Source: an uncultured Gammaproteobacteria bacterium
GTDB taxonomy: Bacteria; Patescibacteriota; Patescibacteriia; UBA11705; JABHMO01
DNA: 64,000 nucleotides
Direction: 5' to 3'
Assembly: GCA_964486065.1 (NCBI GenBank)
Contig: CAZAKN010000001.1
Coordinates: forward strand, 157,640-221,639
Each line of letters starts with the position of its first letter. Within the stretch, counting starts at the first letter, position 1. Below are positions 21,404 to 57,216 of the stretch, piece after piece. The position numbers were made by a program, and so were the translations under genes. Below the pieces are notes generated by a model, which was not told the DNA's origin, did no database searches, and saw only the letters and a program-made list of their open reading frames with translations.

Positions 21404-21958
21404 ATGAATCTTAAAAACTTGGAAAAATGGATGGAATTCATTGAAAACATGGTTATTCTTCCTTGCTTCATAATTTTAATCTTAACAGGGATCGCCATTT
21501 CCCTGTGGATGGATTTAACCAGAAGATATGAAAACATCCCGGTGGATGAAACCGCAAAGTTTTTCGTTGTCCGAGAAAACACCTTCGGACTGAAAAATGG
21601 TCAAGTTTTCATTCGTTCCAAAGTGCCAATCTTCTATTCGGAAAACATTGTTAAGCCGATTTTTCAGTATAAATCGTATGAAGGTCCGCGTTATTTGATT
21701 CCTTATCCGAAACTGGATTTGGTGATCTTGGAACTGGAAAAAATCAACGCGGATTCAAACATTATCTCGGTCATGTTTCCAAACATGGAAACTAAAAGTT
21801 TCATCATTAACTCTCCACCGAAAAACGAGCGTCGCTGGCCGGACATGATTGAAAGAGACATGAAAAAACAAGGGCTCCCGATTCCCGAATACACCTTGTA
21901 TCGCTGGCAACCGGGAACTCCACCTAATCAAGGTGAAATCATCATCAGCACTTTATAA
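21404..21958 (+). CDS. Hypothetical N-terminally anchored protein, paralog A (GQVFIRS..P..F..E)
   Basis: About 35% identity to the next ORF across about 150 aa. Confidence 0.5.
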   Translation: MNLKNLEKWMEFIENMVILPCFIILILTGIAISLWMDLTRRYENIPVDETAKFFVVRENTFGLKNGQVFIRSKVPIFYSENIVKPIFQYKSYEGPRYLIPYPKLDLVILELEKINADSNIISVMFPNMETKSFIINSPPKNERRWPDMIERDMKKQGLPIPEYTLYRWQPGTPPNQGEIIISTL

Positions 21959-21968
21959 GGAGATTATT

Positions 21969-22523
21969 ATGACCAGACTTGAAATTTTCCTTTTTTCCAG
22001 CTATTGGCTGATCTTCCTGATGGCAATGATAGGTAATGCGTTCTATCATGACATGTATAAATATTCAGTGGTTCTGAACACGCAAACCGAAAACTACATT
22101 ATCGTGGAAGCCGAATATATTACTTCACCAAACAGAAAAGAGCGCATGCCTAAACCGGGGCAGGTTTTCATTCGTTCCGAAGTACCGGTGGTTTTTTCGG
22201 ACGAAGTGGGCGCGACGACTTTTCAGTACAGTCCTTGGCAAGGAGCTCGTTTACTGAAACCTTTTCCCCAAGAGACGAAAGAATTGATGGTTCTGAACTG
22301 TGAAAAAATTAATTCTCTGTCCGCTGTCGTAACGGTTATGTTCCCCGATGGATGCGCTCGTTCTTTTGTGACTCAATCACCAAGCAAAAATATTCATCGC
22401 CCTCCCGACTTGGTTGAACGAAACATGTTGCGACAAGGTCTGCCTGTCCCTCAATACCTTGTGTATCATTGGGAAACGAATACTCCGCGTGATCAAGGCA
22501 AGCTGTTCTTTTCCGTCATTTAG
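21969..22523 (+). CDS. Hypothetical N-terminally anchored protein, paralog B (start at aaggagattattATG)
   Basis: Paralog of 21404-21958. Strong RBS. Confidence 0.5.
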   Translation: MTRLEIFLFSSYWLIFLMAMIGNAFYHDMYKYSVVLNTQTENYIIVEAEYITSPNRKERMPKPGQVFIRSEVPVVFSDEVGATTFQYSPWQGARLLKPFPQETKELMVLNCEKINSLSAVVTVMFPDGCARSFVTQSPSKNIHRPPDLVERNMLRQGLPVPQYLVYHWETNTPRDQGKLFFSVI

Positions 22524-28258: not shown

Positions 28259-28430
28259 GAATTAATTTTAGCAAAATTAGCTCTATAAGACAATTAAATA
28301 ATTAACATGCATTATTCAATAATTATATTTATGCAACTCTCACGCTGAACAATTATTTTATTCACTAAACACAAAATTATCTTATTTTCGCTAAAATAAG
28401 ACAAACTAAATACTATAACAAAATTTACTA

Positions 28431-28459
28431 TTGACAATATTGTAAGTATATGCTATAAT
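28431..28459 (+). promoter_or_regulatory. Consensus sigma70 promoter TTGACA-17-TATAAT driving a small RNA
   Basis: ttgaca atattgtaagtatatgc tataat, exact consensus hexamers and 17-nt spacer. Confidence 0.7.
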
Positions 28460-28479
28460 GATAATACATTAATAAATAC

Positions 28480-28561
28480 GGCAATCGGACACAAAAAGGG
28501 AGCATGGTAGCTCCGCCTGAAAAAGGTGTTGTCCGTAGAGGTTCAAATCCTCGGATTGCCA
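28480..28561 (+). ncRNA. tRNA-like small RNA, likely an atypical tRNA. It has a 7-bp acceptor stem GGCAATC/GATTGCC, a T-arm with GTTCAAATCC loop and a D-arm-like GAGC-ATGGTA-GCTC. A standard cloverleaf could not be resolved because of about 10 extra nt after the acceptor strand
   Basis: Own promoter upstream and intrinsic terminator downstream. T-loop TTCAAAT consensus. No ORF. Confidence 0.45.
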
Positions 28562-28600
28562 TCAAAAACAACGCTTGATTACTCAAGCGAAAAAATATAT

Positions 28601-28637
28601 CGGAGCTCAATCTCATTGAGCTCCGTCTTTTTTATTT
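28601..28637 (+). terminator. Rho-independent terminator (cggagctcaat-ctc-attgagctccg + TCTTTTTTATTTT), overlaps the stop of the minus-strand glycosyltransferase
   Basis: 11-bp perfect stem and U-tract. Confidence 0.75.
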
Positions 28638-29746
28638 TCAAGCAAAATTTTGTGTGTTTGTATCGCGCATTTTTCCCAGGAAAACAATTTTGTTCTGGCC
28701 AAACCTTTTTCTCTGAGATCGCTTGCTGTCCGCGGATTTAATAATACTCGCGCCATGACCGCGGACATCTGTTCAATATCCGTCGGATCAAACATGATCG
28801 TGGCATCGCCGGCCACTTCGGGCAAACTTGTAGTATTGGAGCAAACCACCGGCTCACCGCAGGCCATGGCTTCCAATATGGGAATACCAAAACCTTCAAA
28901 AAGCGAAGGAAAAACAAATAGATCAGAAGCACTATGTAGATAAGGTAAATCATGATCATCCAGCCAACCGGGAAAAATTATTTCTTTTTGTAAACCATAT
29001 TCCCCTATTTTTTTCTGAGCTTGTTCAAAACCGAATCCGCACGAACCAACTAAAACCAACTTATGATCATCTTGCGGATTTTGTTTTTTAAACAAATTGA
29101 AAGCGTCTATCAAGCGAGAAATATTTTTCTTTTCTTCCAAACGGCCGACAAACAAGATATACGGAGCATTAATTTCAAATTTATTTCTAATGTAAGTCTT
29201 GGCGTCCGGCATTTCCCGATAACGCTCCTGATCATATCCATTGTAAACAACTTTAATTTTAGCTGGATCAATTTTGTAGGTTTCTATCAAATCTCGTTTG
29301 GAATATTCGGAAACCGTGATAATTTGATCGGCTGACTTTTTAATAAAATGGATAATGAGTTTATGATAAAATTTATCAGCCGTTTGATAACATTCCGGGA
29401 AATGTTCAAAGCCGATATCGTGGACGGTTACCACGGAACGCTCGGGATTGAATAATGGAATGGTATGCGCCGGCACGAACAGTGTATCGCATTTTTTCCG
29501 ACCGACCAGCATTTCCCAACTCAAACGCAATACCGTCCAAGTCCGCGGAATCGGCCATTTCAAAACAGCTTCTTGGAAATTATCCGGCATCTCAGCCAAA
29601 GCCCCGCGTAGCGGTTCATTAGCATATAAAAAATACTGATTTTGATGATCAATCTTTTTAAATTGTTCAATCAAGTGATACGAATACCACTCCACTCCGG
29701 TTTTATGTTTTTTGTTGGCGCGTGAAGCGTCTATACCTATTTTCAT
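28613..29746 (-). CDS. Glycosyltransferase family 1 (GT4-type)
   Basis: C-terminal EGFGIPILEAMACGEPVV motif. Confidence 0.75.
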   Translation of the reverse strand: MKIGIDASRANKKHKTGVEWYSYHLIEQFKKIDHQNQYFLYANEPLRGALAEMPDNFQEAVLKWPIPRTWTVLRLSWEMLVGRKKCDTLFVPAHTIPLFNPERSVVTVHDIGFEHFPECYQTADKFYHKLIIHFIKKSADQIITVSEYSKRDLIETYKIDPAKIKVVYNGYDQERYREMPDAKTYIRNKFEINAPYILFVGRLEEKKNISRLIDAFNLFKKQNPQDDHKLVLVGSCGFGFEQAQKKIGEYGLQKEIIFPGWLDDHDLPYLHSASDLFVFPSLFEGFGIPILEAMACGEPVVCSNTTSLPEVAGDATIMFDPTDIEQMSAVMARVLLNPRTASDLREKGLARTKLFSWEKCAIQTHKILLENKKDGAQ

Positions 29747-31414: not shown

Positions 31415-31550
31415 ATATTTTATTATTGATTGAATGTAAGTAAATTATACCTTATTTAATTACTATGTTAAAGCATAAAATATCCTGATATTGACAAAAG
31501 GTTGATAGTATTATATAATATTATACTCAACTTTTCCAAACGGAGGAAAC

Positions 31551-31829
31551 ATGGAATCCTTGACAAAATGCTTAATTTCTTTGTTTATGCTGGCGCTTTG
31601 TATAGAAGTGCCATTGCGTATTATGGGACTGAAAAAAGGCTTCATTATTACTATTACTAGAAAAATGGTCAAAGCAATAACCAAGTGGCTAAGAAAGACT
31701 CTAAGTGCTTTTCTCTGCCGACTGAACACTTTATTTGATCAGTTGTTGTGCTTTTTGCCATTTTCTGTTCAATTAGCCCTACTGGCGACTTTAATTATCA
31801 CTATTGTTCTTTACCTATCTTCCAAATAA
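31551..31829 (+). CDS. Hypothetical small membrane protein (92 aa)
   Basis: RBS ggaggaaacATG, two TM helices, terminator follows. Confidence 0.4.
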   Translation: MESLTKCLISLFMLALCIEVPLRIMGLKKGFIITITRKMVKAITKWLRKTLSAFLCRLNTLFDQLLCFLPFSVQLALLATLIITIVLYLSSK

Positions 31830-42713: not shown

Positions 42714-44150
42714 TCAAGATTTGGCATATCTTGGATCTTTTTTAACAAGTTCCGAGCCCACCAACATTAATCCGCAAGGTAGCCACATTTTGGCTATAAA
42801 ATATGAAGTGGAAAAAAGTTGCGCGAAAAACATTCCGCCGGCCATGAGAAACAATGCCAAAATCAACATTTGACCTTCGTGATTAACACTGAAAAACATT
42901 TTGCCCGTGCGATAAAACAACCATATAAAAAATATGACAAATGAAATAAATCCGAATAAGCCGGTTTCGGTTAAAAGTTTTTGGATAAAACCATGGGCAT
43001 CCAAGGGATCACCGTATTGAACCCAAAAAGCGAATGTTTCACCGATGATTTCTTGAAAAGTTCCCAATCCATGCCCGACAAATGGATGTTCTCCCCAAGC
43101 GGACAAAGTGATCATGGTCATCATCAAACGATTGGAAGTGGAAGTTTGCACTTCCTTTTCTTGCACCCAAACGGTAGAATAAAAAACTCCCATCGCCAAA
43201 ACAAGTAAAACCAAAACCGCGATTATTTCAAATTTTTTGAATTTGAATTTTATCAAATGATCTTTGTATAAAAATAAAGCCAAAGCTAAAACCTGTAAAC
43301 CCAAAACCAGCCAGCCCGTTCGCGAAAATGTCAACATAAGCACGATGCTCATAAACAAGATGGCCAATAAATACCAACCCTGATGCTTGATTTTCCTCGC
43401 CGTGAAAAATAAAAACAAAGCCGCCGGCACGGCAATTATCAAACTTTCCGCCACAGCGTTATGATTCCCCTCCAGCCAATTCAATCCGAAAATCGGCCAC
43501 GGCGTGGCTCTACGCATAAACCAACCTCCTTCACTGAAAAGAACGGTCAAAAATCCCAGCGTAGCTGACAATAGTCCACCCGCCAAAATCATCCAAAGAA
43601 TTTTTTTTAATTCCACTTTACTTTTTATGATATTGAACGGCAAAACCATAAACATGATGTAAGCGAAAACCAAAGGACGAAGAAAAAACTCAGCAGACAA
43701 CTGCCAGTGCGGAGTATTGATAAAAGATAAAGCCGATGCCACGAAAAAAATCAAGGCATAAGTCCAACCGGGCATGCGAGTTATGCTGGGCTCCTCCGGA
43801 GAGGGACGACAGACTGCGCCTTTAAGAAATTGACCGGTTAGCATGCGCATTAAAATTCCTGCAAGTAAAAGCAAAGCGAATAAATCAACATACGGGACAC
43901 TGAATCCGAAAGTTTCGGCTCTCAACCCCCAAAACGGCATAAAAAATGCCATTAAATAAAGTCCCAAAATCGGATAGACCGCAAACAATAAGGATATCAA
44001 CATGGCCACTTCAAAAAACAAAACATAAAGCCATGGAAAAAAATAACTGCCTATAAAACCGGCTATCACAAAAACAATTAAGAAAAAGCCACTCATTTTT
44101 TTCAAATCCTCAGCACTCAATTTAAATGTTTTATTATTCATATTGTACAA
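42714..44150 (-). CDS. O-antigen ligase/polymerase-like (Wzy_C family) polytopic membrane protein
   Basis: About 12 TM helices with large periplasmic loop, 478 aa. Confidence 0.55.
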   Translation of the reverse strand: MYNMNNKTFKLSAEDLKKMSGFFLIVFVIAGFIGSYFFPWLYVLFFEVAMLISLLFAVYPILGLYLMAFFMPFWGLRAETFGFSVPYVDLFALLLLAGILMRMLTGQFLKGAVCRPSPEEPSITRMPGWTYALIFFVASALSFINTPHWQLSAEFFLRPLVFAYIMFMVLPFNIIKSKVELKKILWMILAGGLLSATLGFLTVLFSEGGWFMRRATPWPIFGLNWLEGNHNAVAESLIIAVPAALFLFFTARKIKHQGWYLLAILFMSIVLMLTFSRTGWLVLGLQVLALALFLYKDHLIKFKFKKFEIIAVLVLLVLAMGVFYSTVWVQEKEVQTSTSNRLMMTMITLSAWGEHPFVGHGLGTFQEIIGETFAFWVQYGDPLDAHGFIQKLLTETGLFGFISFVIFFIWLFYRTGKMFFSVNHEGQMLILALFLMAGGMFFAQLFSTSYFIAKMWLPCGLMLVGSELVKKDPRYAKS

Positions 44151-44260
44151 ATTATAGCATATTTTTGATTATAATCACACAAAAAAAGTCTGTTCACAAA
44201 ACACGGAATTCCAAACATGGAAAATTCTTAACGATCTATGATCCGTGTTTTGTGGCAAAT

Positions 44261-44292
44261 AAAAAAGGCGGAAGCTGTTGCTTCCGCCTGAA
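44261..44292 (-). terminator. Terminator of the giant gene (ggcggaagc-tgtt-gcttccgcc, T-run on minus strand)
   Basis: 9-bp stem, A6 before on plus strand. Confidence 0.7.
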
Positions 44293-44310
44293 AGTTATAA
44301 AGAACGAAGT

Positions 44311-47300
44311 TTACAAATCAAGATCATTGCAGTCAAACCCGTCAATGGTAACCGCGGCCTTGGTTTGGAAACCTTCCTGAATGGAATAGGGCGTTCCTCC
44401 ACCCAGTTCCACATTGGTCACATTGGTGACCATGCCGTTGTTTTCCGGCCAGGCCAGCCAATCCGTCTCATTGTGGCAATTGTATTCCAGCCACGGGGTT
44501 TCGGTATCTTCATGGTTGCCCCAGACACAGACATCCCGCAAGGAGACAGTCTTAGTGCCGGAGACTTCCGGATCCGAATCCCAGATGTTATCGCCCGTAC
44601 CGAGCTTACCCCATACCAAGTACAAAGTATTGTCGACTGGACAAGTAAAGTGGACGGTCAAGCATCCTTCATCGGTGCGACCGTCGCAGTCATTATCTTC
44701 TCCATCGCAGACTTCCACACCGGGATTAACCGGCGAACAAGCATACTCGCAACCGTTGCGGGGATTTTCGTCAACATCGTAATATCCGCTATTGCAGACA
44801 TCGGGCTGACAACTCCCCTCCTGACACGAGTAGTTCGCGACATTGAGGTACTGCAGATAGGAACAGCTGTTGCCACAGGCGCCACAATGGTTACGGTCAG
44901 TTTGAAGATCAAAGCCTTCATCAACCTCACCGTTACAATCATTGTCCACACCGTCGCAAGCTTCGGTTCCGCCGTTGGTCATGCCACAGGGACCGTATTC
45001 ACAGCCATCCTCGTCATTTCCATTGGCGTCGTAGTAACCGCTGACGCAACTGTTCACCCGACACACACCGCTAACACAACCGGTGGCGGAAGTGTTTTGT
45101 AGCAAAGTGTTGCAGTCATTACCGCAACCGCCACAATTGGCTTCATCCGTGGACTTATTAAAGGTCTCGTCCACCTGACCGTCGCAGTCATCGTCCAAAT
45201 CATTGCAGACTTCCGAGGTCAACGGCATAACCGCGTCCTCACAATCTCCCCAAGTAAAGCCATCCAGACAAACTTGAGTACCAAACTCGCAAATGCCTTG
45301 CTCATTGGCGGGTCCGCAATCACGAACCGCTCCGGCCTGACAAATACAGCCTTCATCCGTCGTCCCGTCGCAATCGTTGTCCACGCCGTCGCAACTTTCC
45401 ACGACCGACATGTCTTCCGATCTTCCGGGCATGGTGGAGCAGGCGTAATCATTCAGACCATCGCACTCAATCACACCAGGTCCGGCGCAAGCACCAAGAC
45501 CGTAACAAAGCGCGCCAACGAAATAATCTTCGTCGGTTTGTCCGTCAAGGTCGTTGTCCTTACCATCGCATAGTTCGGATGCGCCCGGATAAACCGAACT
45601 GTCATTGTCGACCGTATCTCCTTCGCAAATCCGAACTCCATCTTCATCGGAGTCGTTTTCGTTCACGGGAACGGAACCGTCGCAGTCGTCATCCAAACCG
45701 TTGCACAGCTCAGTGGCTTCCGGCATGATCGCATCGAGGCAATCACCCCAGGACATACCGTCCGGCGAACAAGTCTGCGTTCCAAAAACGCAAATCCCTT
45801 GTTCATTGGCGGATCCACAATCGCGAGTTTCGCCGGCTACGCAGGTACAACCTTCGTTCACCGAGCCATCGCAATCATCGTCCAAACTGTTACCACAGCT
45901 TTCCACGCCGGACATATCTTCCGATCCGCCGGGCATGGTGGAACAACGATAGGTGTTGAAAGTAGCGCACTCAATAGTGCCAGCTCCGCAAACACCGATA
46001 CCGTTACAGCTGGCACCGATAAAGAAGTCTTCATCCACCATCCCGTCGCAATCGTTGTCTTGGCCATCGCAGAGTTCCGCGTTACCGGGGAAATTATCCG
46101 GATCCAAGTCATCGCAATCATTATCGCAAACCTTGATTCCGTCTTCATCCTCATCCGCTTCCTCCGCGGGGATAACACCGTCGCAGTCATCATCCAAACC
46201 GTTGCAAGATTCCGCTTCGGCCGGTTCAACCGCTCCGACGCATTCCAACCACGATTTGCCGTCTTCGGCGCAGGTTTCCAAGCCATACTCGCAAGCTCCG
46301 ACATCGGTCGTACCGCATTGGCGAGTGACGCCTGCCACACAAACACACTCGGCATCGTTGATATCAACTAAGCCGTCGCAGTCATCGTCCAATCTGTTAC
46401 CACAAACTTCTTCGGAAGAAGCATCCGCGGAGCCACCGGGCATGGTATCGCACATTACGGTCGTCGTGGTGGCGCATTCCAATACGCCGACACCGCAAGC
46501 ACCCACGCCTTGGCAGGCATTACCGACACCGAACGACTCGTCCACCTGCTCATCGCAGTTGTTATCCAGTCCATCGCAGATTTCAAGCGACAAGGGATTG
46601 ATGGTGGCTTCAGCGTCATTGCAGTCTCCCGCGCAAACGCGAACACCATCTTCATCCTCATCCGCTTCTTCCGCGGGAACGGAACCGTCGCAGTCGTCGT
46701 CCAAACCGTTACAAAGCTCGGATTCTTCCGGCATGACCGCTCCGACACATTCACCCCAACCGTCTCCGGCCGGATTACAGGTTTGCACTCCGAACTCGCA
46801 AATGCCTTGATCCGTTTCCGGACCGCATGCGCGAGTGGAAGCCGGACGACAATTGCAATCATCATCGTTCAAATCAACGAGTCCATCGCAGTCATCATCC
46901 ATACCGTTATCGCAAACTTCCGTGGCGGAAGCATCAGCCGAACCGCCGGGCATGGTATTGCATTGCACGGAATTATCCGTAGCGCATTCCAAAGTCCCCG
47001 GCGTATCACCGCAAGCTCCGATTCCCACGCAAGCCGAGCCGACGAAATATCCTTCGTCCACCTGCTCATCGCAGTTGTTATCAATCCCATCGCAGAGTTC
47101 AAGCGACAAGGGGTTGATGGTGGCTTCAGCGTCATTGCAGTCTCCCGCGCAAACGCGAACACCGTCTTCATCCTCATCCGCTTCCTCCACGGGAATAACA
47201 CCGTCGCAGTCATCATCCAAGCCATTGCAAGATTCCGCTTCGGCCGGTTCAACCGCTCCGACACATTCCAGCCACGATTTGCCGTCTTCGGCGCAGGTTT

Positions 47301-49146
47301 CCACGCCATATTGACACTCACCGACATTGGTCGTGCCACATTGGCGGGTCTGCCCGGGGAAGCAAATGCAACCGTTGTTGACTACACCGTCGCAATCGTC
47401 GTCCAATTCATTGCCACAATCTTCGGCAATGGATTCATCAGCCGAACCTCCCGGTTCAGTGGAGCAACGCGTTTCGGTTTCACCGGCGCATTCCACCACC
47501 CCGACGCCACAAGCGCCGAGACCTTCGCAAGGCTCGCCAATCCCGAATCCCTCGTCAATCTGATCGTCGCAGTTATTATCCACGCCGTCACAGATTTCCA
47601 AGACATCGGGGTTGATGGTCGCCAAAGCGTCATCGCAATCACCTTCACAGATGCGGAAACCGTCTTCGTCCTCATCCGCTTCGTTGGCCGGGATTTGATC
47701 ATCACAATTGTTATCCAGCCCGTCGCAGATTTCCTCCGCTTCCGGATGGATCAACTTGTTCAGATCATTGCATTCCTCGCAAGCCAGAAATCCGTCTTGA
47801 TCAAGGTCAACTTCCGTTTCCAGCTTTTCGCCGTCACAGTTATTGTCCTTGCCGTCGCAAATTTCTTCGGCTTCCGGGAAAACAGCCGGATCCTGATCAT
47901 CGCAGTCTCCCGCGCAATTCAGGATGCCGTCCTCGTCTTGATCAACTTCATCCTCCGGCACTTGGCCGTCGCAGTCGTCGTCAAGACCATTGCATTCCTC
48001 GGCTTCCAAAGCCTGGCTTTCGGAGCCACCGGGCATGGTGGAGCAAATGACTTGCTCGGCATTGTCGGGATCGCATTCGTAAACGCCTTCACCGCAAATA
48101 CCTTGACCGGTGCAAACCTCTCCGACTTCATAGTCTTCGTCGGTTTCACCGTCGCAATCATTGTCCTTACCGTCGCACAGTTCAGCTTCGGCGGGCATAA
48201 CCGCGCCTTCACACTCACCCCATTCCCAAGTTTGATCCTCGGTTTGGAGGCAAGTCTGAATACCGAATTCGCATTCCCCTTCTGCAGTCTCGGGACCGCA
48301 ACGCCGAATATCATTCGGCTGACAAGTGCACTCTTCCTCGTCGGTTTCACCGTCGCAATCATTGTCGCGATCGTCCTCGCAAATCTCCGTCGGATTATCA
48401 GGATCGTCCACATAGCAGACATCCTCACCTTCCGGATATTCGCATCCGTCTTCCGGATCCAGATTGGCATCATGCTTACCACTTTCACAAGCGGTAATCT
48501 CGCACAAGCCTTCTTCGCAAACAAATTCTGCGACTTGCAGACCATCAAACTCAGCCTGACAGCTGTAGCCACATTCTCCGCAGTTTTCCGGATCCTCGGC
48601 CAGATTAAACTCTTCGTCAATCTCGCCATCGCAATCATTGTCCACGCCGTCACAGGTTTCCGTCTCCGGATCCACATTGCCTATGCAATTGGTCCATTGA
48701 CCCTGTTCATCGCAAACACGAAACCCCATTTTGCAAGGGGAAGTGTTTTCCGCGTCGGCGGAACCGCATTCCTCTCGCTCTCCGGGCGAACACTGTCCAT
48801 CCGGAATCACTTCGTCTTCATCACCATCCACCAAGTCGGCATAATCAAGCCAACCATCGTAGAGACAGTAACTGCCTCTACAACTGAAACCGGGTTCGGA
48901 ATAAACATCCAATCCCGCTCTCAGGCAATCTTGATCGGTTTCGCAACCGGTCACGATACAAGTTCCTGACAAGCAAGACGCCTGACTGATGGTACAGTCC
49001 GACGGCGTATCGCACTTCTCCGGGAAATTGACGAGTCCGGATTGATCTCCGTCCTCATCCGCTTTTTTCCCGCCGTTGCCGTCATCACATCCGGCGCCAT
49101 ACAGCGCGAAAAGCGTGATGAAAAAAATGGCCATCAATTGCTTCAT
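44311..49146 (-). CDS. Giant secreted Cys-rich repeat lipoprotein (about 1611 aa). It has about 20 MopE-like putative metal-binding repeats C.G.DNDCDG..DE interleaved with Cys-knot-like modules, and a distinct C-terminal domain. True start is ATG at 49146 (track ORF starts at an upstream TTG)
   Basis: Lipobox LYGAGC. Recurring CDG[VLK]DNDCDG..DE and C.G.G.C.G..EC motifs. RBS aaggagagaatcATG. Confidence 0.75.
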   Translation of the reverse strand: MKQLMAIFFITLFALYGAGCDDGNGGKKADEDGDQSGLVNFPEKCDTPSDCTISQASCLSGTCIVTGCETDQDCLRAGLDVYSEPGFSCRGSYCLYDGWLDYADLVDGDEDEVIPDGQCSPGEREECGSADAENTSPCKMGFRVCDEQGQWTNCIGNVDPETETCDGVDNDCDGEIDEEFNLAEDPENCGECGYSCQAEFDGLQVAEFVCEEGLCEITACESGKHDANLDPEDGCEYPEGEDVCYVDDPDNPTEICEDDRDNDCDGETDEEECTCQPNDIRRCGPETAEGECEFGIQTCLQTEDQTWEWGECEGAVMPAEAELCDGKDNDCDGETDEDYEVGEVCTGQGICGEGVYECDPDNAEQVICSTMPGGSESQALEAEECNGLDDDCDGQVPEDEVDQDEDGILNCAGDCDDQDPAVFPEAEEICDGKDNNCDGEKLETEVDLDQDGFLACEECNDLNKLIHPEAEEICDGLDNNCDDQIPANEADEDEDGFRICEGDCDDALATINPDVLEICDGVDNNCDDQIDEGFGIGEPCEGLGACGVGVVECAGETETRCSTEPGGSADESIAEDCGNELDDDCDGVVNNGCICFPGQTRQCGTTNVGECQYGVETCAEDGKSWLECVGAVEPAEAESCNGLDDDCDGVIPVEEADEDEDGVRVCAGDCNDAEATINPLSLELCDGIDNNCDEQVDEGYFVGSACVGIGACGDTPGTLECATDNSVQCNTMPGGSADASATEVCDNGMDDDCDGLVDLNDDDCNCRPASTRACGPETDQGICEFGVQTCNPAGDGWGECVGAVMPEESELCNGLDDDCDGSVPAEEADEDEDGVRVCAGDCNDAEATINPLSLEICDGLDNNCDEQVDESFGVGNACQGVGACGVGVLECATTTTVMCDTMPGGSADASSEEVCGNRLDDDCDGLVDINDAECVCVAGVTRQCGTTDVGACEYGLETCAEDGKSWLECVGAVEPAEAESCNGLDDDCDGVIPAEEADEDEDGIKVCDNDCDDLDPDNFPGNAELCDGQDNDCDGMVDEDFFIGASCNGIGVCGAGTIECATFNTYRCSTMPGGSEDMSGVESCGNSLDDDCDGSVNEGCTCVAGETRDCGSANEQGICVFGTQTCSPDGMSWGDCLDAIMPEATELCNGLDDDCDGSVPVNENDSDEDGVRICEGDTVDNDSSVYPGASELCDGKDNDLDGQTDEDYFVGALCYGLGACAGPGVIECDGLNDYACSTMPGRSEDMSVVESCDGVDNDCDGTTDEGCICQAGAVRDCGPANEQGICEFGTQVCLDGFTWGDCEDAVMPLTSEVCNDLDDDCDGQVDETFNKSTDEANCGGCGNDCNTLLQNTSATGCVSGVCRVNSCVSGYYDANGNDEDGCEYGPCGMTNGGTEACDGVDNDCNGEVDEGFDLQTDRNHCGACGNSCSYLQYLNVANYSCQEGSCQPDVCNSGYYDVDENPRNGCEYACSPVNPGVEVCDGEDNDCDGRTDEGCLTVHFTCPVDNTLYLVWGKLGTGDNIWDSDPEVSGTKTVSLRDVCVWGNHEDTETPWLEYNCHNETDWLAWPENNGMVTNVTNVELGGGTPYSIQEGFQTKAAVTIDGFDCNDLDL
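45420..48050. repeat. About 510-bp near-identical tandem DNA repeats (about 5-6 copies) inside the giant gene. Each unit encodes ...MPGGS(A/E)D.S...DDDCDG...C.YG.ETC...
   Basis: Long identical nt stretches, for example 46601-46700 vs 47121-47220. The MPGGS-encoding segment recurs at about 45430, 45935, 46440, 46950, 47455 and 48040. Confidence 0.75.
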
Positions 49147-49164
49147 GATTCTCTCCTTTGTTGT

Positions 49165-49181
49165 CCCCAAAAATTTTGGGG
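49165..49181 (-). promoter_or_regulatory. 5'-UTR palindrome CCCCAAAAATTTTGGGG immediately upstream of the RBS of the giant gene
   Basis: Near-perfect inverted repeat. A homologous CCCCCTAAATTTTGGGGGG sits in the same position in gene 53823-54857. Confidence 0.55.
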
Positions 49182-49342
49182 AGATTTAGGAAAACAGTAA
49201 AAGTAAACAAATTGTCAAACTTCACAAACTCTCATTCAAGGGGTTTTACAAATGAACAAATACTTTATTCATTCATAAAAATCCTTGAAGATCATACCTG
49301 CAACTTACCACGATTACTAATAAAAATAAATATTAAGACACA

Positions 49343-49388
49343 ATTTGCAGACATTTAATTTTAGCAAAAATAAGAACTTTTGTCAAGT
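49343..49388 (-). promoter_or_regulatory. Candidate promoter of the giant gene (minus strand TTGACA-17-TAAAAT), giving an about 195-nt 5'-UTR
   Basis: Plus strand tgtcaa at 49383-49388 and atttta at 49360-49365. Confidence 0.45.
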
Positions 49389-49417
49389 GTTGTTATTTAC
49401 ACATTTTTAGCTAATTT

Positions 49418-49450
49418 TAAATAAAAATTCCCCGAGACTGATAGTCTCGG
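49418..49450 (-). terminator. Terminator of gene 49463-51400 (ttccccgagact-gat-agtctcggggaa)
   Basis: 12-bp stem, A-run before on plus strand. Confidence 0.7.
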
Positions 49451-49462
49451 GGAATGATGAGT

Positions 49463-51400
49463 TTAAGGGGTTGGTAATTTTACCCAAATCCCTCTGTCAA
49501 CGCGGGGGTCATCAACGATTTCCTCCGCATTGACCCGGTCTCCATTGTCTTTTCGGTAAAATACCTCCTGAACATGGAAACCCGTCCTCTGGAAGTTGAA
49601 ATGGCTGGAGAAGTGTACTTCAACATACACCACTCCCCCCGAAACATCCTCCAAGTTGAGAGGAATCTGGAAGCTTTTCCCATCTTCCATAATAGGAATA
49701 CCGTCATACATAACAGCATCCCCATCTTGGTTAAAATGGGAAATCACGCCCCTGAGCATTCCTTCCGGAAGACCATCAGGAATATCTCTCATGACAACTC
49801 CGATATTTCCCGAAAGAGGGAAATTATCGGCGACGGGTTGCTCCTCCTCTGAGGCACCATCGTCACCATCGGAATCATCACCATCCTCGTCGTCTTCCTG
49901 CTCGTCGCCATCTGAGATATCGCCATCTTCTTGATCAACCACTTGCTGACAAGTGGTTTCCTCAAAAGTGGCAACAAATCCCAATCCGTGAACATGGTTG
50001 ATGTTTTCCACATCCACGGAAAGAGGACATTCTTCATGAACGAACATTACCTCTTGCAACTGAACGGCTTGAGGATCTGACCAGTTCTCTTGGTCATACA
50101 GCGCGTCAAACCAAATTCTTTTTTGGATAACGCGGCTAAGATCCAGCGACAAAGAGACACATCCGTCTCCATCCAATGCCAACCGGACTTCCTGTTCTCC
50201 ATTGTCAGAAATATATCTGACGGAGACATTATTACAGGAGTGCGGTCCACAGTGGCTCCAAACGGCGCAAATCGTGAGCTCTCCAGCTCCACTTTCATAA
50301 ACATCCTGTTCATCGCCGTCGGTATCGCCATCTTCATCATCGCCGTCCGTGTCGTCGTCTTCATCATCGCCGTCGGTGTCACCATCGGTATCGCCATCCA
50401 TGTCACCGTCTTCATCATCGCCGTCGGTATCACCATCGGTATCGCCATCCATGTCGCCATCTTCATCATCGCCGTCTTCTTGAGGCCGTTCACCTTCCAA
50501 GCAAACGCCTTGGTCACACCAGTAACCATTCCGGCAATCAAAGTCATCCTGACAAGTGGCGAGACATTCACCTTCCTCGCAGACTTCGTTGTCCGCGCAT
50601 AGGGATTTGAACTCGCAGAGATTTCCTTCTCCGCACCTTGCCTCATAGCAAGTACCGAGTTCCATCCCTTCCGGGGGAGTCAAGCACTCGTGATCGTATG
50701 TGCAGGACTGCTTTCCGGCACAACGACCGGTGTGCAGATCGCAATACTGGCTGTTCAGACAAGACTCGGGGATTTCCTCCCCCGTCTCATCCGTACATGG
50801 CGCGTACTGCAAACATGCACCCTCATCTCCACAGTAGAAACCGTGGAGGCAGTCCTCATAACTTCCACATGCATTTGCCTCTTCGCAAATGTTTTCCCTA
50901 CGGTCACACTGCTCCGTCAAGAAACAGTCAGTGTGCTCGCCACAACGACCTTCTTGCCATTGCGTCACGCATTCTTCATGAATGCATACATATTCCTGAC
51001 CTTCCTGCTCAGGCTCACCACAGTCGGAGGCTTCCTCGCACTCCGGCTCATACACGACACAAGTACCCATATAGCAGTACTTGCCCTCGGCGCAATCACG
51101 ATTACTGCGACAAGTTTCGTCGCCATCCGTGATGTCGTCGCCATCCGTGTCGCCGTCGGTCGGCTCATCCCCATCGGAGATGTCGCCGTCCGTGTCGCCG
51201 TCGGTCGTGGAAATCTGCTCAGCGCAGAATCCCGCACTCGTGCAGTACTGCCACCGCGCGCAATCGGCGTCGGTTTCGCACTGCGTTTCTTTGGCGTCCG
51301 AGGATTCTTCTTCCTCGGCTTTTTTCTTGTCGCCACAACCGGCAACAAAACCCGCGAAAGCCACCATCAGCATAAGCGCAAAAATCAGGTTCTTCTTCAT
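49463..51400 (-). CDS. Secreted Cys-rich, acidic DGD-repeat lipoprotein (645 aa), paralog of 51596-53677. Conserved C-terminal YVEVH...DDPRVDRG domain
   Basis: Lipobox FVAGCGD, (DGDTDGDDEDGDM)x2, Cys-rich module, RBS aaggagacagagtaATG. Confidence 0.7.
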   Translation of the reverse strand: MKKNLIFALMLMVAFAGFVAGCGDKKKAEEEESSDAKETQCETDADCARWQYCTSAGFCAEQISTTDGDTDGDISDGDEPTDGDTDGDDITDGDETCRSNRDCAEGKYCYMGTCVVYEPECEEASDCGEPEQEGQEYVCIHEECVTQWQEGRCGEHTDCFLTEQCDRRENICEEANACGSYEDCLHGFYCGDEGACLQYAPCTDETGEEIPESCLNSQYCDLHTGRCAGKQSCTYDHECLTPPEGMELGTCYEARCGEGNLCEFKSLCADNEVCEEGECLATCQDDFDCRNGYWCDQGVCLEGERPQEDGDDEDGDMDGDTDGDTDGDDEDGDMDGDTDGDTDGDDEDDDTDGDDEDGDTDGDEQDVYESGAGELTICAVWSHCGPHSCNNVSVRYISDNGEQEVRLALDGDGCVSLSLDLSRVIQKRIWFDALYDQENWSDPQAVQLQEVMFVHEECPLSVDVENINHVHGLGFVATFEETTCQQVVDQEDGDISDGDEQEDDEDGDDSDGDDGASEEEQPVADNFPLSGNIGVVMRDIPDGLPEGMLRGVISHFNQDGDAVMYDGIPIMEDGKSFQIPLNLEDVSGGVVYVEVHFSSHFNFQRTGFHVQEVFYRKDNGDRVNAEEIVDDPRVDRGIWVKLPTP

Positions 51401-51480
51401 TACTCTGTCTCCTTGCGGGCAACCATGCCCGCTGCTGTTAAGGTTTTTCCGAAATGAAATTTCTGAAAGAACGATATATT

Positions 51481-51509
51481 ATTCTATCAAATTTTGGCAT
51501 TTTTGTCAA
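51481..51509 (-). promoter_or_regulatory. Consensus-like promoter (minus strand TTGACA-17-TAGAAT) for gene 49463-51400
   Basis: Plus strand attcta...17 nt...tgtcaa. Confidence 0.55.
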
Positions 51510-51555
51510 TAGTACTTAGCAAAATTAGTGCATTTGGAAATTTTTGCCTAAATTT

Positions 51556-51580
51556 AAACAAAAACCCGTGCGTTTTACGC
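51556..51580 (-). terminator. Terminator of gene 51596-53677 (cccgtgcg-tttta-cgcacggg)
   Basis: 8-bp stem with flanking A/T runs. Confidence 0.7.
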
Positions 51581-51595
51581 ACGGGTTTGAATTAT

Positions 51596-53677
51596 CTAAT
51601 CAAACTCGCAATAGTCCCCTCTATCAACACGATCATCCAAGATCACTTCAGCTTGAATAGTTTCTCCATTCTGCAAGCCATAAATGACCTTAATCGGAGC
51701 TATGCCCGAAGGATTGAAGTTCCAATTTGGAGTGGAGTGTATTTGCACATACACCACACTGCTTAACGCTTGCTCCAAATCCAAATCATGTGAAAAACAC
51801 TTACCGTTGATCGGGATATTGTCATGAATGACAGAATGACCATCCATGTCAAAGTAAGAAAAATATCCCTTCCATCCTTCTTCGTTAATCGGATAACACG
51901 CGATAAGCGTATTCGGAGGAGCGCTCATGGGAAGGTGCTGATCTTCATCGCCGTCTTCAGCGATATCTTCGTCGCCATCCGGCTCCACAGGCTCATGGCA
52001 AGTGAAATCTTCAAACTCCAGAACATAGCCCCATTCGTCCCAAGAATACCGGACATCTTCCGGCGGAACGACAATAACGCAGTCTTCCATACGATATTCA
52101 GCCGACACGATGGTCGGTTTGGGCCAAATCCAGTTGTTCCCCGTATGCGCGTCAAATCTGAAACGCGCATTCCACACATCATCCAAATCCACTTGATGAG
52201 CAAAACAATTTCCTTGTGTCGGAATATCCAACTCCTGTAGCCCCCCCTCATACAAAGTATAAATCAAGGAAACTTGTTCATATTGCGAAAACCTTTCAGA
52301 GGCACAAACACGCAAAACACCATCTTCCCAATCATCGTCTTCAACGAGATCTTCGTCACCATCAACGGTGATATCCTCATCTCCATCTTCAGCGATATCT
52401 TCGTCGCCATCCGGTTCCGGCTCAGGCAAACACTCGCCTTCCTCGCAACCGTAATAGCATGGTTGACTCTCAACCCAACATACACCTTCGACACAATTAG
52501 GCATGTGATGAACCAACATAGCCTCTTGTGAACCGTCGGAGGATGGGACACAGATCCAACTCTCAATGCAGTCCTGATCCGACATGCATTCTGGTTGCGA
52601 ATTGCAAGCTCCGTTGGAGCAACCGAACTCACAAATTTCTATTAGAATGTTGCAGTAATGATCCTCTTGAACACAGACACCGGACGGGTATACCCGAACA
52701 TTTCCTGTCAAACACTCGGCAGGCAAATTTGTTTCCGAGCAATCGTTGTCGGTTTCACAATAATGCCAATCCGCACGATCAGCCCTTACACACCGACCGT
52801 CCTGACAGACATCACCGGTTGACGGATCACCGTCCACACAATCCACATCTATCTCGCACTCGTTGCCGGGAACGCATTCACCATTCTCGCAAATCTCACC
52901 GTCATCACAGTGGTTACGATATTCACAAACAAGATCAGCACAACGATAATCATAACAAGTACCGTAATCCAATCCTTCCGGCAACTCGCTACAATCATTA
53001 TCACTTTCACAAGCGGAAAGTTTTTCGCAACGACCGGTTTCCTGATTACAATATTGCCCGTTAAAGCAGGCTTCCGCGATTTCCACTCCGTCTTCATTAA
53101 CACAAACATTGTATTGTTTGCATTGATTGACTTCCTGGTCGCAAAAATAACCCTCTCTGCAATCAAGATTTTCCTCGCACTCTCGGGCCGATTCGCAAAA
53201 TCCTTGGCGGTTGCATTCTTCGTACGGGAGGCAATCCACATTATTGTGGCATTCACCCGAACCTTCCATGCATTGGCAATCAACGCAATTCAAGTCTTCT
53301 CTGCAATCCTCCGCGGAGCGGCACTCACATTCAGTGCAACGACTCGCGATACAAAGCTCTCCTGTTTTGCATTGGAAATCATAGCGACAATACCCTTGAC
53401 GATTGCTCGGTTCGGGGTCATCACCGTCTTCCACTTGTTCGTCACCATCAGGGCTGATTTCCGCGTCCAGATCACCGTCCACTTGTTCACTCTCCGTCTC
53501 CGGTACGCAGAAACCATCCGCGCAAAAGAATCCATCATCACATTGCTCATCGGACGAGCAGAGACTGATGGTGAACTCTTCGTCACCATCCAAGATTTCA
53601 CTTTTTTTTCCATCCTCACCGCAACCGGCGAAATAGATGGCAAAAAGCAACAGGACAACAAACTTAAACTGTTTCAT
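51596..53677 (-). CDS. Secreted Cys-rich, acidic repeat lipoprotein (693 aa), paralog of 49463-51400. It carries a duplicated EPDGDEDIAEDGDED segment and the same C-terminal domain
   Basis: Lipobox FAGCGEDG, collinear Cys pattern with the previous gene, C-terminal YVQIH..DDRVDRG. Confidence 0.7.
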   Translation of the reverse strand: MKQFKFVVLLLFAIYFAGCGEDGKKSEILDGDEEFTISLCSSDEQCDDGFFCADGFCVPETESEQVDGDLDAEISPDGDEQVEDGDDPEPSNRQGYCRYDFQCKTGELCIASRCTECECRSAEDCREDLNCVDCQCMEGSGECHNNVDCLPYEECNRQGFCESARECEENLDCREGYFCDQEVNQCKQYNVCVNEDGVEIAEACFNGQYCNQETGRCEKLSACESDNDCSELPEGLDYGTCYDYRCADLVCEYRNHCDDGEICENGECVPGNECEIDVDCVDGDPSTGDVCQDGRCVRADRADWHYCETDNDCSETNLPAECLTGNVRVYPSGVCVQEDHYCNILIEICEFGCSNGACNSQPECMSDQDCIESWICVPSSDGSQEAMLVHHMPNCVEGVCWVESQPCYYGCEEGECLPEPEPDGDEDIAEDGDEDITVDGDEDLVEDDDWEDGVLRVCASERFSQYEQVSLIYTLYEGGLQELDIPTQGNCFAHQVDLDDVWNARFRFDAHTGNNWIWPKPTIVSAEYRMEDCVIVVPPEDVRYSWDEWGYVLEFEDFTCHEPVEPDGDEDIAEDGDEDQHLPMSAPPNTLIACYPINEEGWKGYFSYFDMDGHSVIHDNIPINGKCFSHDLDLEQALSSVVYVQIHSTPNWNFNPSGIAPIKVIYGLQNGETIQAEVILDDRVDRGDYCEFD

Positions 53678-53794
53678 GATATTCTCCTTTTTTTTGATTG
53701 TTTAAAGGAACAAACTAACATTATACTGTAACAAATTTTTAATCTTTTGGCAAGTGCCAAAGGTGATTAATTAAAACACAATAATTAAAAAACC

Positions 53795-53821
53795 ATGCGG
53801 TCAGACCGCATGGTTTGTTTT
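53795..53821. terminator. Bidirectional terminator (ccatgcggtc-aga-ccgcatgg)
   Basis: 9-bp stem flanked by A5 and T7. Confidence 0.7.
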
Positions 53822-53822
53822 T

Positions 53823-54857
53823 TTAAAAGATGCAATAAACCCCTCTATCAACGCGAGGGTCATCCGTGAGCTCCCCAACCTTAACGGAATTTCCGTCATT
53901 GGTCTGAACCTTCATGACGGGAATTCCGGTTCTACGATAGTTGTACTTGGCTCCTTGGTGGAGCTCCACATAAACAGCTCCGTCCAAGGCTTCTTCCAAA
54001 AAGAATGGAAACGAAAATTTGTTTCCATCCAATGGGATACCATCATACTGAACCGAATCCCCATTCATGTCAAAGTACGAAAAGTACCCTGCATAGGCAC
54101 CCGGTGGAGTATCACAAGGCAAATCCACCCAAACCTCTATCTCGTAGAGGTCTGTCCAGTTGCCCGGTTCAGGCCAACAGGCCAACGATTCTCCCGAATC
54201 CCCCGGATCTTCTTCCTCGTCAGTCGCCGGTTCTTCACCGGGATCATCCATTTCTTCGCCCGGGTCCTCTTCGGGATCCTCACCGGGCTCTTCCTCGTCT
54301 TCCGGATCATCCAGATTCTCACCGGCGGTATCCTGGTCTTCCCAGTCTTCCACCGGTTCCTCGCCTTCCGGCTCGGAACTGTCACCGGGCATATCACCGT
54401 CTTCGGGTTCATCACCATCGGGAATATCGCCGTCTTCAACGGCGTTGCCCCAGCCACGAGGCAATTCGCTTTCATCCACGCAGGTACCGAGGATTTGCTC
54501 CTCTCCCAGCCCGGATTTTCCCTTCAAGGACATCTGGAACTTTTCTTCCAGATTGTCCACGCAGACCATGCCGGCGGGGCATTCGGTGATGACGACAGGC
54601 GGATCCTGGAAATGGATCACGCCGTTCATGTCTCTGCCATATTCCATACGGCAGATTTCGGGAACGCAACGCCGCCCCTCGTATCCATCGTAAAAACCTT
54701 CCAGACATATCCAGCCCGGAAGCTCACATTCCGCGTCGGTGAAACACGTCTGCGGACCATCATCCGTGGAGATCGTCCCCATGTCCACCTCGGTGGCACA
54801 ACCGGTAGCAAACATGAGCATTGTAATTATACACACAATAACTTTAACTTTCTTCAT
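53823..54857 (-). CDS. Secreted Cys-rich acidic-repeat lipoprotein (345 aa). N-terminal module shared with 55052 and 56203 genes, C-terminal module shared with 49463 and 51596 genes. Start at ATG 54857
   Basis: Lipobox FATGC, PRGWGNAVEDGDIPDGDEPEDGD segment, C-terminal YVELH..DDPRVDRG, RBS aaggagagaataATG. Confidence 0.7.
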   Translation of the reverse strand: MKKVKVIVCIITMLMFATGCATEVDMGTISTDDGPQTCFTDAECELPGWICLEGFYDGYEGRRCVPEICRMEYGRDMNGVIHFQDPPVVITECPAGMVCVDNLEEKFQMSLKGKSGLGEEQILGTCVDESELPRGWGNAVEDGDIPDGDEPEDGDMPGDSSEPEGEEPVEDWEDQDTAGENLDDPEDEEEPGEDPEEDPGEEMDDPGEEPATDEEEDPGDSGESLACWPEPGNWTDLYEIEVWVDLPCDTPPGAYAGYFSYFDMNGDSVQYDGIPLDGNKFSFPFFLEEALDGAVYVELHQGAKYNYRRTGIPVMKVQTNDGNSVKVGELTDDPRVDRGVYCIF

Positions 54858-54876
54858 TATTCTCTCCTTTGTTTGT

Positions 54877-54895
54877 CCCCCCAAAATTTAGGGGG
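54877..54895 (-). promoter_or_regulatory. 5'-UTR palindrome CCCCCTAAATTTTGGGGGG upstream of the RBS of gene 53823-54857
   Basis: Homolog of the 49165-49181 element. Confidence 0.5.
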
Positions 54896-55018
54896 AAGTT
54901 GAAGTTCTTTGCTTTTTTCAAAGAGCAATTTGATGTTTAAAATTAACAAATTTTTTAATCTTTGTCAATAGCCATTGATTATTCCTTGAAATATCACCTA
55001 AATTTAAATAAAAAAGCT

Positions 55019-55043
55019 CCGTTGGATTTCCAACGGAGCGTTG
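55019..55043. terminator. Terminator (ctccgttgga-tt-tccaacggag)
   Basis: 10-bp stem, T-runs on both strands. Confidence 0.7.
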
Positions 55044-55051
55044 TTTTTTTG

Positions 55052-56035
55052 TTAAAGCTCTCCCAAAGGATAGCCATCACCTTCTTTGTAAGCGCCGATG
55101 TTCATCGGTTCTCCGTTGAAGAATGCGACCACCGGAGGATTATGCCTTCCTTCCCAGCGACTACCGTTTGTCAGATCGGTAGCATAGTTTCCAAGCGAAC
55201 AGTCCGCTTCCGTCAATTCCCAGGAAACGCACTCCCACTCGGCATGATCAATCCCCCAATCATCTTCCATGCATTCACTGAAAGAACACATTCTGTATGA
55301 TGGGTGATCGTTCATGATTTGCCCCCAGCCTCCTTCTTTACAGGAGTCAAAGACCAAACTCCCGTAATAGGACTCCACGATATACTGCCAACAAATGATG
55401 AACCGTCCCGTTTGGAAATGCTCGTCACCATCGGGAATATCTCCGTCTTCGGGCTCGTCGCCGTCTTCCGGTTCATCACCGTCTTCCGGTTCATCACCGT
55501 CTTCAGGTTCGTCACCGTCTACCGGTTCTTCCCGGTCTTCCACCGGTTCTTCGCCTTCCGGCTCGGAACCGTCATCGTCGGGCATATCGCCATCCCCCTC
55601 GGCGTTTCCCCAGCCGTTTTTAATGTCTCCTTCGTACACGCAACGGCCCAGCTTTTCCTCGCGTCGTAGGCCCATGGATTCGGCCAATGCCTCGGCTTCC
55701 TCCTCGGTGAAGCTTCCGTACTCACCTTCCACTTCGTCCAGCGATTCCAGCTGGACACACTCCCAAGCTTCCGGGCAGGCGCTAGTCTTCGGCGATTCAT
55801 ACTGAACCTGTCCGTTTTGACTAATCGAAAATGTCAACCTGCAAAAATCATACAGGCATCTTTTTTCTTCCGGGTTTTCTTTGCTAAGACCGCAAATATA
55901 CCCTTCTTCGCATTCCTTATCTTGAATGCAGATCTCCGGACTTTCGTCAGTTTTCACCGTTCCGAGATCGACGACCGTCTGGCAACCCATTACCCCGACG
56001 ACGATCAAAAACATCAACAATATACTGTAACGCAT
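55052..56035 (-). CDS. Secreted Cys-rich acidic-repeat lipoprotein (328 aa) with (EPEDGD)x5 repeat and a YYGSLVFDSC C-terminal module shared with 56203 gene
   Basis: Lipobox VMGCQT, RBS aaggaggacgccATG. Confidence 0.65.
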   Translation of the reverse strand: MRYSILLMFLIVVGVMGCQTVVDLGTVKTDESPEICIQDKECEEGYICGLSKENPEEKRCLYDFCRLTFSISQNGQVQYESPKTSACPEAWECVQLESLDEVEGEYGSFTEEEAEALAESMGLRREEKLGRCVYEGDIKNGWGNAEGDGDMPDDDGSEPEGEEPVEDREEPVDGDEPEDGDEPEDGDEPEDGDEPEDGDIPDGDEHFQTGRFIICWQYIVESYYGSLVFDSCKEGGWGQIMNDHPSYRMCSFSECMEDDWGIDHAEWECVSWELTEADCSLGNYATDLTNGSRWEGRHNPPVVAFFNGEPMNIGAYKEGDGYPLGEL

Positions 56036-56160
56036 GGCGTCCTCCTTTTTTTTGGGATAAAAATTTTTTGAAAAGAACAATTTATATTATCAAATAATCT
56101 TATTTTTGTCAAGTATTATGCCATTTTTAGTGTTTTTGTAAAATATTTTTTAATATTAAA

Positions 56161-56190: not shown

Positions 56191-56202
56191 TGTTTAAAGA
56201 AC

Positions 56203-57213: not shown

Positions 57214-57216
57214 TTA

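Follow-up and report, generated by a model that had tools for sequence, protein, structure and literature searches.

A 64,000-nucleotide (nt) stretch of genome from a member of the Patescibacteria (candidate phyla radiation), here called the window, carries on its minus strand, in this order, the genes for CysRS, Dus, MreB, a GT4 glycosyltransferase, holB, a BNR-repeat protein, RRF and GlyRS; the named closest homologues of its holB come from Candidatus Kuenenbacteria. Between the glycosyltransferase gene and holB, and on the opposite strand, lies a small unit whose predicted product is a tRNA-like RNA of 82 nt that has no anticodon arm. A first-pass annotation of this locus had described an RNA of about that length with a T arm, a 7-bp acceptor stem, a D-arm-like GAGC-ATGGTA-GCTC, some 10 extra nucleotides ahead of the D arm and a possible long-range GGACA/TGTCC pairing, preceded by an exact consensus promoter and followed by a small hairpin and a strong terminator. 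All of these elements are present (Table 1): the acceptor stem, the T arm and the long-range pairing, which we call helix X, form in the minimum-free-energy fold, and the extra nucleotides prove to be an 11-nt insertion after tRNA position 7.

Table 1 Coordinates of the tRNA-like RNA gene, its signals and the insertion that carries it, numbered from the first letter of the window
Feature	Positions	Strand	Basis or remark
Sigma-70-type promoter	28431-28459	+	−35 TTGACA 28431-28436, spacer 17 nt, extended −10 TGcTATAAT 28451-28459
Predicted 5′ leader	28466-28479	+	Transcription start placed by promoter geometry, ~7 nt past the −10 hexamer
Predicted mature tRNA-like RNA, 82 nt	28480-28561	+	3′ end at discriminator A28561; fold; identical in L022, L023, L025
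Acceptor stem, 5′ strand GGCAATC	28480-28486	+	7 Watson-Crick pairs with 28554-28560
Helix X, 5′ strand GGACA	28487-28491	+	First part of the insertion after position 7; pairs with 28530-28534
A-rich single-stranded linker CAAAAAG	28492-28498	+	Remainder of the insertion
D-arm-like hairpin GGAGC-AUGGUA-GCUCC	28499-28514	+	Stems 28499-28503/28510-28514, loop 28504-28509
Short hairpin GCCU-GAAAA-AGGU (alternative CGCC-UGAAAAA-GGUG)	28515-28527	+	Occupies the place of the anticodon arm
Helix X, 3′ strand UGUCC	28530-28534	+	Inside the 9-nt variable region 28529-28537
T arm GAGG-UUCAAAU-CCUC	28538-28552	+	Stem 28538-28541/28549-28552, loop 28542-28548
Acceptor stem, 3′ strand GATTGCC	28554-28560	+	Sequence and fold
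3′-trailer hairpin CGCTTGA-TTAC-TCAAGCG, 7 bp	28572-28589	Either	Sequence and whole-transcript fold
Bidirectional intrinsic terminator	28601-28634	Both	11-bp stem 28601-28625, then TCTTTTTT; T runs on either side
Lineage-specific insertion carrying the RNA gene, about 330 bp	~28281-28640		Relatives' spacers 30-99 bp

The promoter matches the consensus at 12 of 12 hexamer positions (TATAAT at 28454-28459) and adds the TG of an extended −10 element (TGnTATAAT, TG at 28451-28452). It is one of three perfect TTGACA-17-TATAAT sites in the 64-kb window, where 0.06 would be expected, and 20 nt separate its −10 hexamer from the GGCAATC that begins the RNA; both hexamers are unaltered in the strain variants L022 and L023. 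The other two perfect sites likewise precede open reading frames (ORFs), one of them a Wzz-like gene at 61339 and the other a 92-residue ORF at 31551 that is kept in relatives. This second unit (31491-31829, plus strand) has no Pfam match, and its position and opposite orientation are retained in L001, L005 and L022, with lengths of 87-92 residues. At the downstream end of the RNA gene, the terminator extends over the end of the minus-strand glycosyltransferase gene, including its last codons and its stop codon (28613-28615), and the trailer hairpin, with a T run behind it on the minus strand, resembles a second terminator for that gene. Consensus promoter and strong terminator bracket a predicted transcript of about 170 nt, whose leader is unpaired when the whole is folded.

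Folded by itself, the 82-mer has a minimum free energy of −28.5 kcal/mol (z = −3.3) in a structure that includes every helix described, and the whole predicted transcript, at z = −6.4, retains them. All 25 predicted pairs are standard, one of them G-U, with no internal mismatch. The T arm, which is the sole GGTTCRANYCC match in the window, has a stem of four Watson-Crick pairs, or five layers if the A28537-G28553 mismatch is counted, and the D-like hairpin carries the GG of tRNA positions 18/19 together with an A11:U24-type stem. By inspection of the sequence, equivalents of G18/G19, U54/A58, C56 and G53:C61 are all there, and from the D loop onward the 3′ 58 nt keep canonical spacing, with a TGGTA-to-GGTTC gap of 30 nt, as in a class I tRNA. 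No CCA is encoded after A28561, where the genomic sequence goes on with TCA. The departures from a canonical tRNA are the 11 nt added after position 7, the lack of U8, a D loop of 6 nt, a hairpin that is not an anticodon arm and a variable region of 9 nt. Helix X, seen in both the minimum-free-energy and the centroid folds, is predicted to join the first five inserted bases to the enlarged variable region; because bases of the insertion pair with the variable region, the RNA would contain two nested three-way junctions, one of acceptor stem, helix X and T arm and the other of helix X, D hairpin and short hairpin.

The tRNA-like arrangement is not a chance pattern: among 3000 composition-preserving shuffles of the whole window, 11 produced GGTTCRANYCC together with a 7-bp Watson-Crick acceptor stem in the right place, a count that leaves the D hairpin, the promoter and the terminator aside. 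Its plus orientation is fixed by the promoter and by the T loop, since only that strand yields a loop whose first base is U and whose fifth is A.

The RNA was then compared with known classes. ARAGORN in default mode reports 0 tRNA and 0 tmRNA (transfer-messenger RNA) genes in the window, and with the options -ps, -ps50, -i and -mt it returns only nonsense calls, none of which uses the GGCAATC acceptor stem. Deleting the 5′ insertion in silico, in 36 variants run at two thresholds each, again gave 0 genes; ARAGORN fails even after this removal, and therefore the insertion is not the sole problem, the anticodon arm itself being absent. Rfam 15 has no match at gathering scores across the whole window, and at E ≤ 10, on segments of 321 nt and 91 nt, it finds no tRNA, tRNA-Sec, tmRNA or YrlA, but chance matches only (small nucleolar and long non-coding RNAs). 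Set beside a canonical tRNA, the RNA has the 7-bp closing acceptor stem with its discriminator A28561 and the T-psi-C-R-A-type loop with G53:C61. Where a tRNA has the connector U8, N9 it has 12-13 nt, GGACACAAAAAG(G), between acceptor and D stems, and where a tRNA has an anticodon arm (5-bp stem, 7-nt loop, U33, purine 37) the best that can be drawn is a 4-bp stem with a GAAAA or UGAAAAA loop. The 7-nt-loop reading, UGAAAAA, places G at position 33 on a stem of 4 bp, and in the register that gives a tRNA-Phe-like CUGAAAA loop the stem does not pair.

A routine decoding tRNA is thus rejected by ARAGORN in all modes and by Rfam, and an intron-containing tRNA is rejected as well, no anticodon arm being recoverable and the intron mode of ARAGORN being empty of usable calls. 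These searches bear out the earlier statement that no standard anticodon arm or cloverleaf could be derived: a normal tRNA with a clear anticodon, which the first-pass annotation had named as an outcome refuting its reading, was not returned. Among the identities it had proposed, that of a tRNA-like RNA gene holds on the evidence of signals and fold, whereas that of an intron-containing tRNA does not.

The gene sits in a segment that the relatives compared lack. In three relatives (holB identity 45-48%) the gene order is identical and the spacer between the glycosyltransferase gene and holB measures 30-99 bp, against which the window has an insertion of about 330 bp. This insertion is flanked by the conserved holB promoter (TGCTAAAAT, upstream of the ATG at 28258) and by the 3′ end of the glycosyltransferase gene, whose final six codons are now provided by the insertion's terminator. 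The last ~20 bp before the holB ATG (TGCTAAAAT, 6 nt and the ATG) are recognisably the same promoter element in the relatives. A mobile element was considered and rejected, the insertion being single-copy and having no terminal repeats. Also within the insertion, upstream of the RNA promoter, is a 12-bp hairpin with A+T-only stems (TTRTCTTATTTT-CGCT-AAAATAAGACAA, 28377-28404) that becomes perfect in strain L022 through an A-to-G difference. The neighbouring holB mRNA appears leaderless or near-leaderless (window 28259-28293, minus strand, and the spacers of L001, L003 and L005 before position 4001); here and in each of the three relatives, 6-8 nt lie between the end of the holB extended −10 element (TGCTAAAAT; TGCTATAAT in L001) and the ATG.

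Three assemblies of this species (L022, L023 and L025), from at least two other sequencing projects, carry the RNA unchanged, and its conservation is confined to strains about 99.6-100% identical. Between L022 and the window we count 46 differences in 13,017 positions (0.35%), with four substitutions in the 221 nt that separate holB from the RNA and none in the 169-nt transcript, a pattern that is no more than suggestive of retention of the transcript at the strain level. The protein database holds no holB intermediate between those of the near-identical strains and those of relatives at 48% identity. Two sequence patterns, one joining D arm and T loop and the other acceptor stem and T loop, each had no match in either the 185,579 species genomes or the viral contigs, in scans that demand exact matches to the chosen segments and could miss diverged relatives. 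BLASTN against phage and plasmid collections gave no match; an overlapping antisense ORF of 62 residues, searched as a proxy for homologous loci against 5.8 billion proteins, matches itself only; and with a covariance model built from this one RNA, neither the window nor the other loci examined yielded a paralogue.

In the viral contigs a pattern of the loops only recovered tRNA-Phe and other phage tRNAs. A viral locus found with helix X and the T loop as the pattern (L024 3033-3120, an IMG/VR phage contig) was weighed as a homologue and rejected; its layout is superficially like that of the RNA here, but its fold is weak (z = −1.4). It has an acceptor-like GGAGCA/TGCTCC followed by GGACA/TGTCC and a T arm, overlaps the end of a 218-residue ORF and adjoins GIY-YIG-type (homing-endonuclease-like) ORFs within a phage tRNA cluster, and it is probably a disrupted tRNA or tRNA remnant, or else a chance match. 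Four further IMG/VR phage contigs (L015 1684-1730, L016 13667-13713, L018 1060-1106 and L020 6670-6716) have in common one conserved tRNA-like sequence whose D loop contains an additional hairpin (GGAGTACTCATATGATACTCC) and which also has a CGUGAAAAA loop; ARAGORN, run on L015 alone among these loci, skipped it but called tRNAs nearby, including one with a four-base anticodon.

Several traits of the RNA recall initiator tRNA. With bacterial tRNAfMet it shares the D stem GAGC/GCUC with A11:U24, the pairs G2:C71 and C3:G70, A73, the T loop UUCAAAU with G53:C61 and the 7-bp acceptor stem; with the exception of a single divergent gene, 100% of the bacterial tRNAfMet genes classified have A11-U24, which, along with G2, C3, G70 and C71, has been proposed to determine formylation (PMC1635315). 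Unlike tRNAfMet, which has a C1xA72 mismatch, the RNA here pairs G1:C72, and it has neither the CAU anticodon nor the three G:C pairs (29-31/39-41); its 6-nt D loop, its 11 extra nt after position 7 and its 9-nt variable region set it apart further. A metagenome scan with a 14-nt D arm plus the T loop returned one match, an initiator tRNA (L021 2060-2137), and the same tRNA is the top foreign match of the covariance model, at 22.9 bits, although it was partly selected by the search pattern itself and is a lead, not proof. Even allowing that the initiator likeness rests on short segments conserved among tRNAs, which counts against it, these resemblances point to an initiator-type tRNA as the most likely source. 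The L021 initiator tRNA has GAGC duplicated ahead of its D stem. Adjoining it (L021 1952-2039, BNJV01002007.1) is a Leu-like tRNA with an 8-nt anticodon loop, CUUAAAAA, which ARAGORN labels 'tRNA-???' with the four-base anticodon taaa and which stands first in a tRNA operon with a consensus promoter.

Of the RNAs described so far, the irregular, allo-tRNA-like sequences of Mukai et al. (2017) are the closest. These come from Acidobacteria, Clostridia and Proteobacteria, often from polycistrons or from the vicinity of toxin-antitoxin genes; some have an extra loop (E-loop) between acceptor and D stems, 4-bp T stems or possible five-stem junctions, and several were inactive in translation or aminoacylation tests, their role being not known (PMC5389517; PMC7609411). 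The RNA described here is like them in having an extra element between the acceptor and D stems and a T stem of 4 bp. It lacks, however, the anticodon arm and the long variable-arm hairpin that they retain, its variable region being 9 nt; its 11-nt insertion pairs with that region and has no loop of its own; and its gene stands alone among housekeeping genes. Their acceptor branch has 12 bp in an 8/4 or 9/3 arrangement; the RNA here has 7 + 4 Watson-Crick pairs, to which a G-G mismatch (read as 8/4) or an A-G mismatch (read as 7/5) would add a twelfth layer.

More distant comparisons can be made with bacterial RNAs of known standing. tmRNA is processed by RNase P and aminoacylated, and its tRNA-like domain, like the RNA here, keeps the acceptor stem and the T arm while another helix replaces the anticodon arm. 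The differences are C3:G70 in place of G3:U70, a length of 82 nt against about 350 nt, a true D hairpin, and the lack of a tag reading frame and of pseudoknots, in addition to the negative ARAGORN tmRNA and Rfam searches. YrlA ends in a Ro-binding stem, has its tRNA-like module internally and is encoded by a gene that accompanies the Rsr (Ro60) gene; here, by contrast, the two ends pair as the acceptor stem and the gene lies between holB and the GT4 glycosyltransferase gene, with no rsr. YrlA and Bacillus cereus tRNA-Other resemble our RNA as bacterial RNAs that stand alone and imitate a portion of a tRNA without serving in decoding; it shows no sequence similarity to either, nor any in Rfam at E ≤ 10. 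tRNA-Other is mentioned in PMC5389517, the bacterial Y RNA YrlA is described in PMC4201824, and background on tmRNA is given in PMC3929946 and PMC3985003. The tmRNA domain, tRNA-Other and YrlA, whose defining features the RNA does not share, are functional analogies only. The RNA belongs among the irregular or non-decoding tRNA-like RNAs, as an unusual new form.

The reading that we favour, and to which we give an even chance, is that of a functional, processed, non-decoding RNA derived from a tRNA, whose gene would be independently transcribed and specific to this lineage. RNase P, the 3′-processing enzymes and the CCA-adding enzyme recognise the stack of acceptor stem and T arm together with the elbow nucleotides. 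Here that stack comprises 11 Watson-Crick pairs and one mismatch layer, and, since both the acceptor/T-arm minihelix and the D-loop/T-loop elbow nucleotides are intact, we expect the precursor to be processed as pre-tRNAs are. RNase P would cleave just before G28480 and so take off the leader; an endonuclease or exonuclease would then trim the 3′ side back to A28561, a trailer that starts with U and lacks CCA being the expected substrate of an RNase Z-type enzyme; and the CCA-adding enzyme would complete the 3′ end, to give a processed RNA of about 85 nt. Recognition of acceptor/T-arm features in tRNA processing is discussed in PMC7609411. Having no anticodon loop, the RNA cannot decode; most likely it serves as a non-decoding tRNA mimic, which could bind or titrate a protein recognising the upper half of tRNA or could carry an amino acid outside ribosomal decoding. 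In favour of function we count the retention of a single-copy insertion of ~330 bp in a compact genome and the pairing of all helices without internal mismatch, which is unexpected for a decaying pseudogene. A more detailed proposal, in our estimation unlikely as a whole, would make the RNA a stable, RNase P-processed, CCA-tailed mimic derived from an initiator tRNA, with an architecture not described before, which acts on a tRNA-binding partner or carries an amino acid non-ribosomally. Its architecture would be a pair of nested three-way junctions, with an extended 8-9 connector paired to the variable region and a GAAAA-capped stub in place of the anticodon loop; candidate partners would be the formylation or initiation machinery or a tRNA-targeting enzyme.

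Several points weigh against a functional, processed RNA. The first-pass annotation had named a lack of conservation in relatives as a refuting outcome; the gene was not found at the syntenic site of the three nearest other lineages, and it is shared only by strains ~99.6-100% identical. No homologue was found in the scans, and therefore no helix, helix X included, has covariation support. Zero substitutions in the transcript, against ~3 expected at the flanking intergenic rate, give a P of about 0.05, which is weak, and at the overall rate, with 0.6 expected, zero is not significant. U8 is absent and the extra helix may push the D/anticodon domain aside, so that the RNA need not be L-shaped; read on the minus strand, moreover, the D-like hairpin and the T run behind it score as a weak terminator. 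A young pseudo-tRNA, acquired horizontally or duplicated (perhaps from an initiator tRNA gene), shorn of its anticodon arm, enlarged by an insertion, perhaps still transcribed but without function and on the way to being lost, would account for an orphan that is absent from the relatives' syntenic site and has no counterpart in pattern scans or BLASTN, for the missing anticodon loop and U8, and for strain-level conservation that is statistically not compelling. We regard it as the main rival but the less likely of the two, given that every helix is perfectly paired, including a new helix X that needs two matching 5-nt segments, that consensus promoter and terminator are intact, and that 330 bp have been kept in a streamlined genome with spacers otherwise of 30-100 bp.

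The remaining explanations seem to us less promising still. The tRNA-like part could be a processing handle, of the kind known from tRNA-linked small RNAs and the tRNA-miRNA (microRNA) units of herpesviruses, from which RNase P and RNase Z release a functional downstream hairpin RNA (28563-28634). A stable 7-bp hairpin and a terminator hairpin do lie in the same transcription unit, but both have minus-strand T runs just past the glycosyltransferase stop and are more simply taken as terminators, which leaves the handle improbable. Alternatively, there may be no RNA gene: the region would be a series of terminator hairpins serving the convergent glycosyltransferase gene, and the tRNA likeness and the promoter would be coincidental. 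Three terminator-like hairpins with T runs can indeed be read on the minus strand (28625-28601, 28589-28572 and 28514-28499), which folds roughly as well as the plus strand; yet a T loop with a 7-bp acceptor stem arises by chance in ~0.4% of windows, a 12/12 promoter stands exactly 20 nt upstream, the D hairpin has its GG, and the relatives manage here with 30-99 bp, all of which speaks strongly against such an array. Highly improbable is an aberrant tRNA that decodes through UGAAAAA or an expanded loop: CUGAAAAAG does resemble the tRNA-Phe anticodon loop (YUGAAAA) plus extra bases, 8-nt anticodon loops exist, as in L021, and irregular tRNAs with an extra loop between acceptor and D stems are reported (PMC5389517), but the sole stably stemmed register has G33 and 4 pairs while the others are unpaired, ARAGORN rejects the RNA in every mode and after deletion of the insertion, and Rfam sees no tRNA at E ≤ 10. 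We think just as little of an mRNA for a 24-residue peptide (MVAPPEKGVVRRGSNPRIAIKNNA, ATG 28504 to TGA 28576-28578). Its frame is open and has AAGGGAG ahead of it, but only 1 nt separates the Shine-Dalgarno-like GGAG from the ATG, which is too little, the D-like hairpin has the start codon in its loop, the frame crosses every helix, and the overlapping antisense 62-residue ORF has no homologue besides itself.

Elsewhere in the window, two paralogous adjacent ORFs of 184 and 196 residues (21404-22523, plus strand) have the common motifs GQVFIRS.VP and QGLP.P.Y; they run against the prevailing gene direction and are called as genes in L022, without Pfam matches. The block from 44000 to 58000 has a G+C content of 0.46-0.55, against about 0.39 elsewhere in the window, and contains at least five large ORFs without Pfam match as well as a 1619-residue protein with 14 MopE-type metal-binding repeats (44311-49170, minus strand); it may be an acquired island.

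The reach of the tRNA-like RNA is limited to one species-level lineage so far. If it is stable and processed, it would be a natural case in which a tRNA gene of a bacterium has become a non-decoding mimic, its core topology escaping standard tRNA finders and Rfam. In minimal-genome bacteria each retained gene is informative, and tRNA-like genes can go wholly unannotated.

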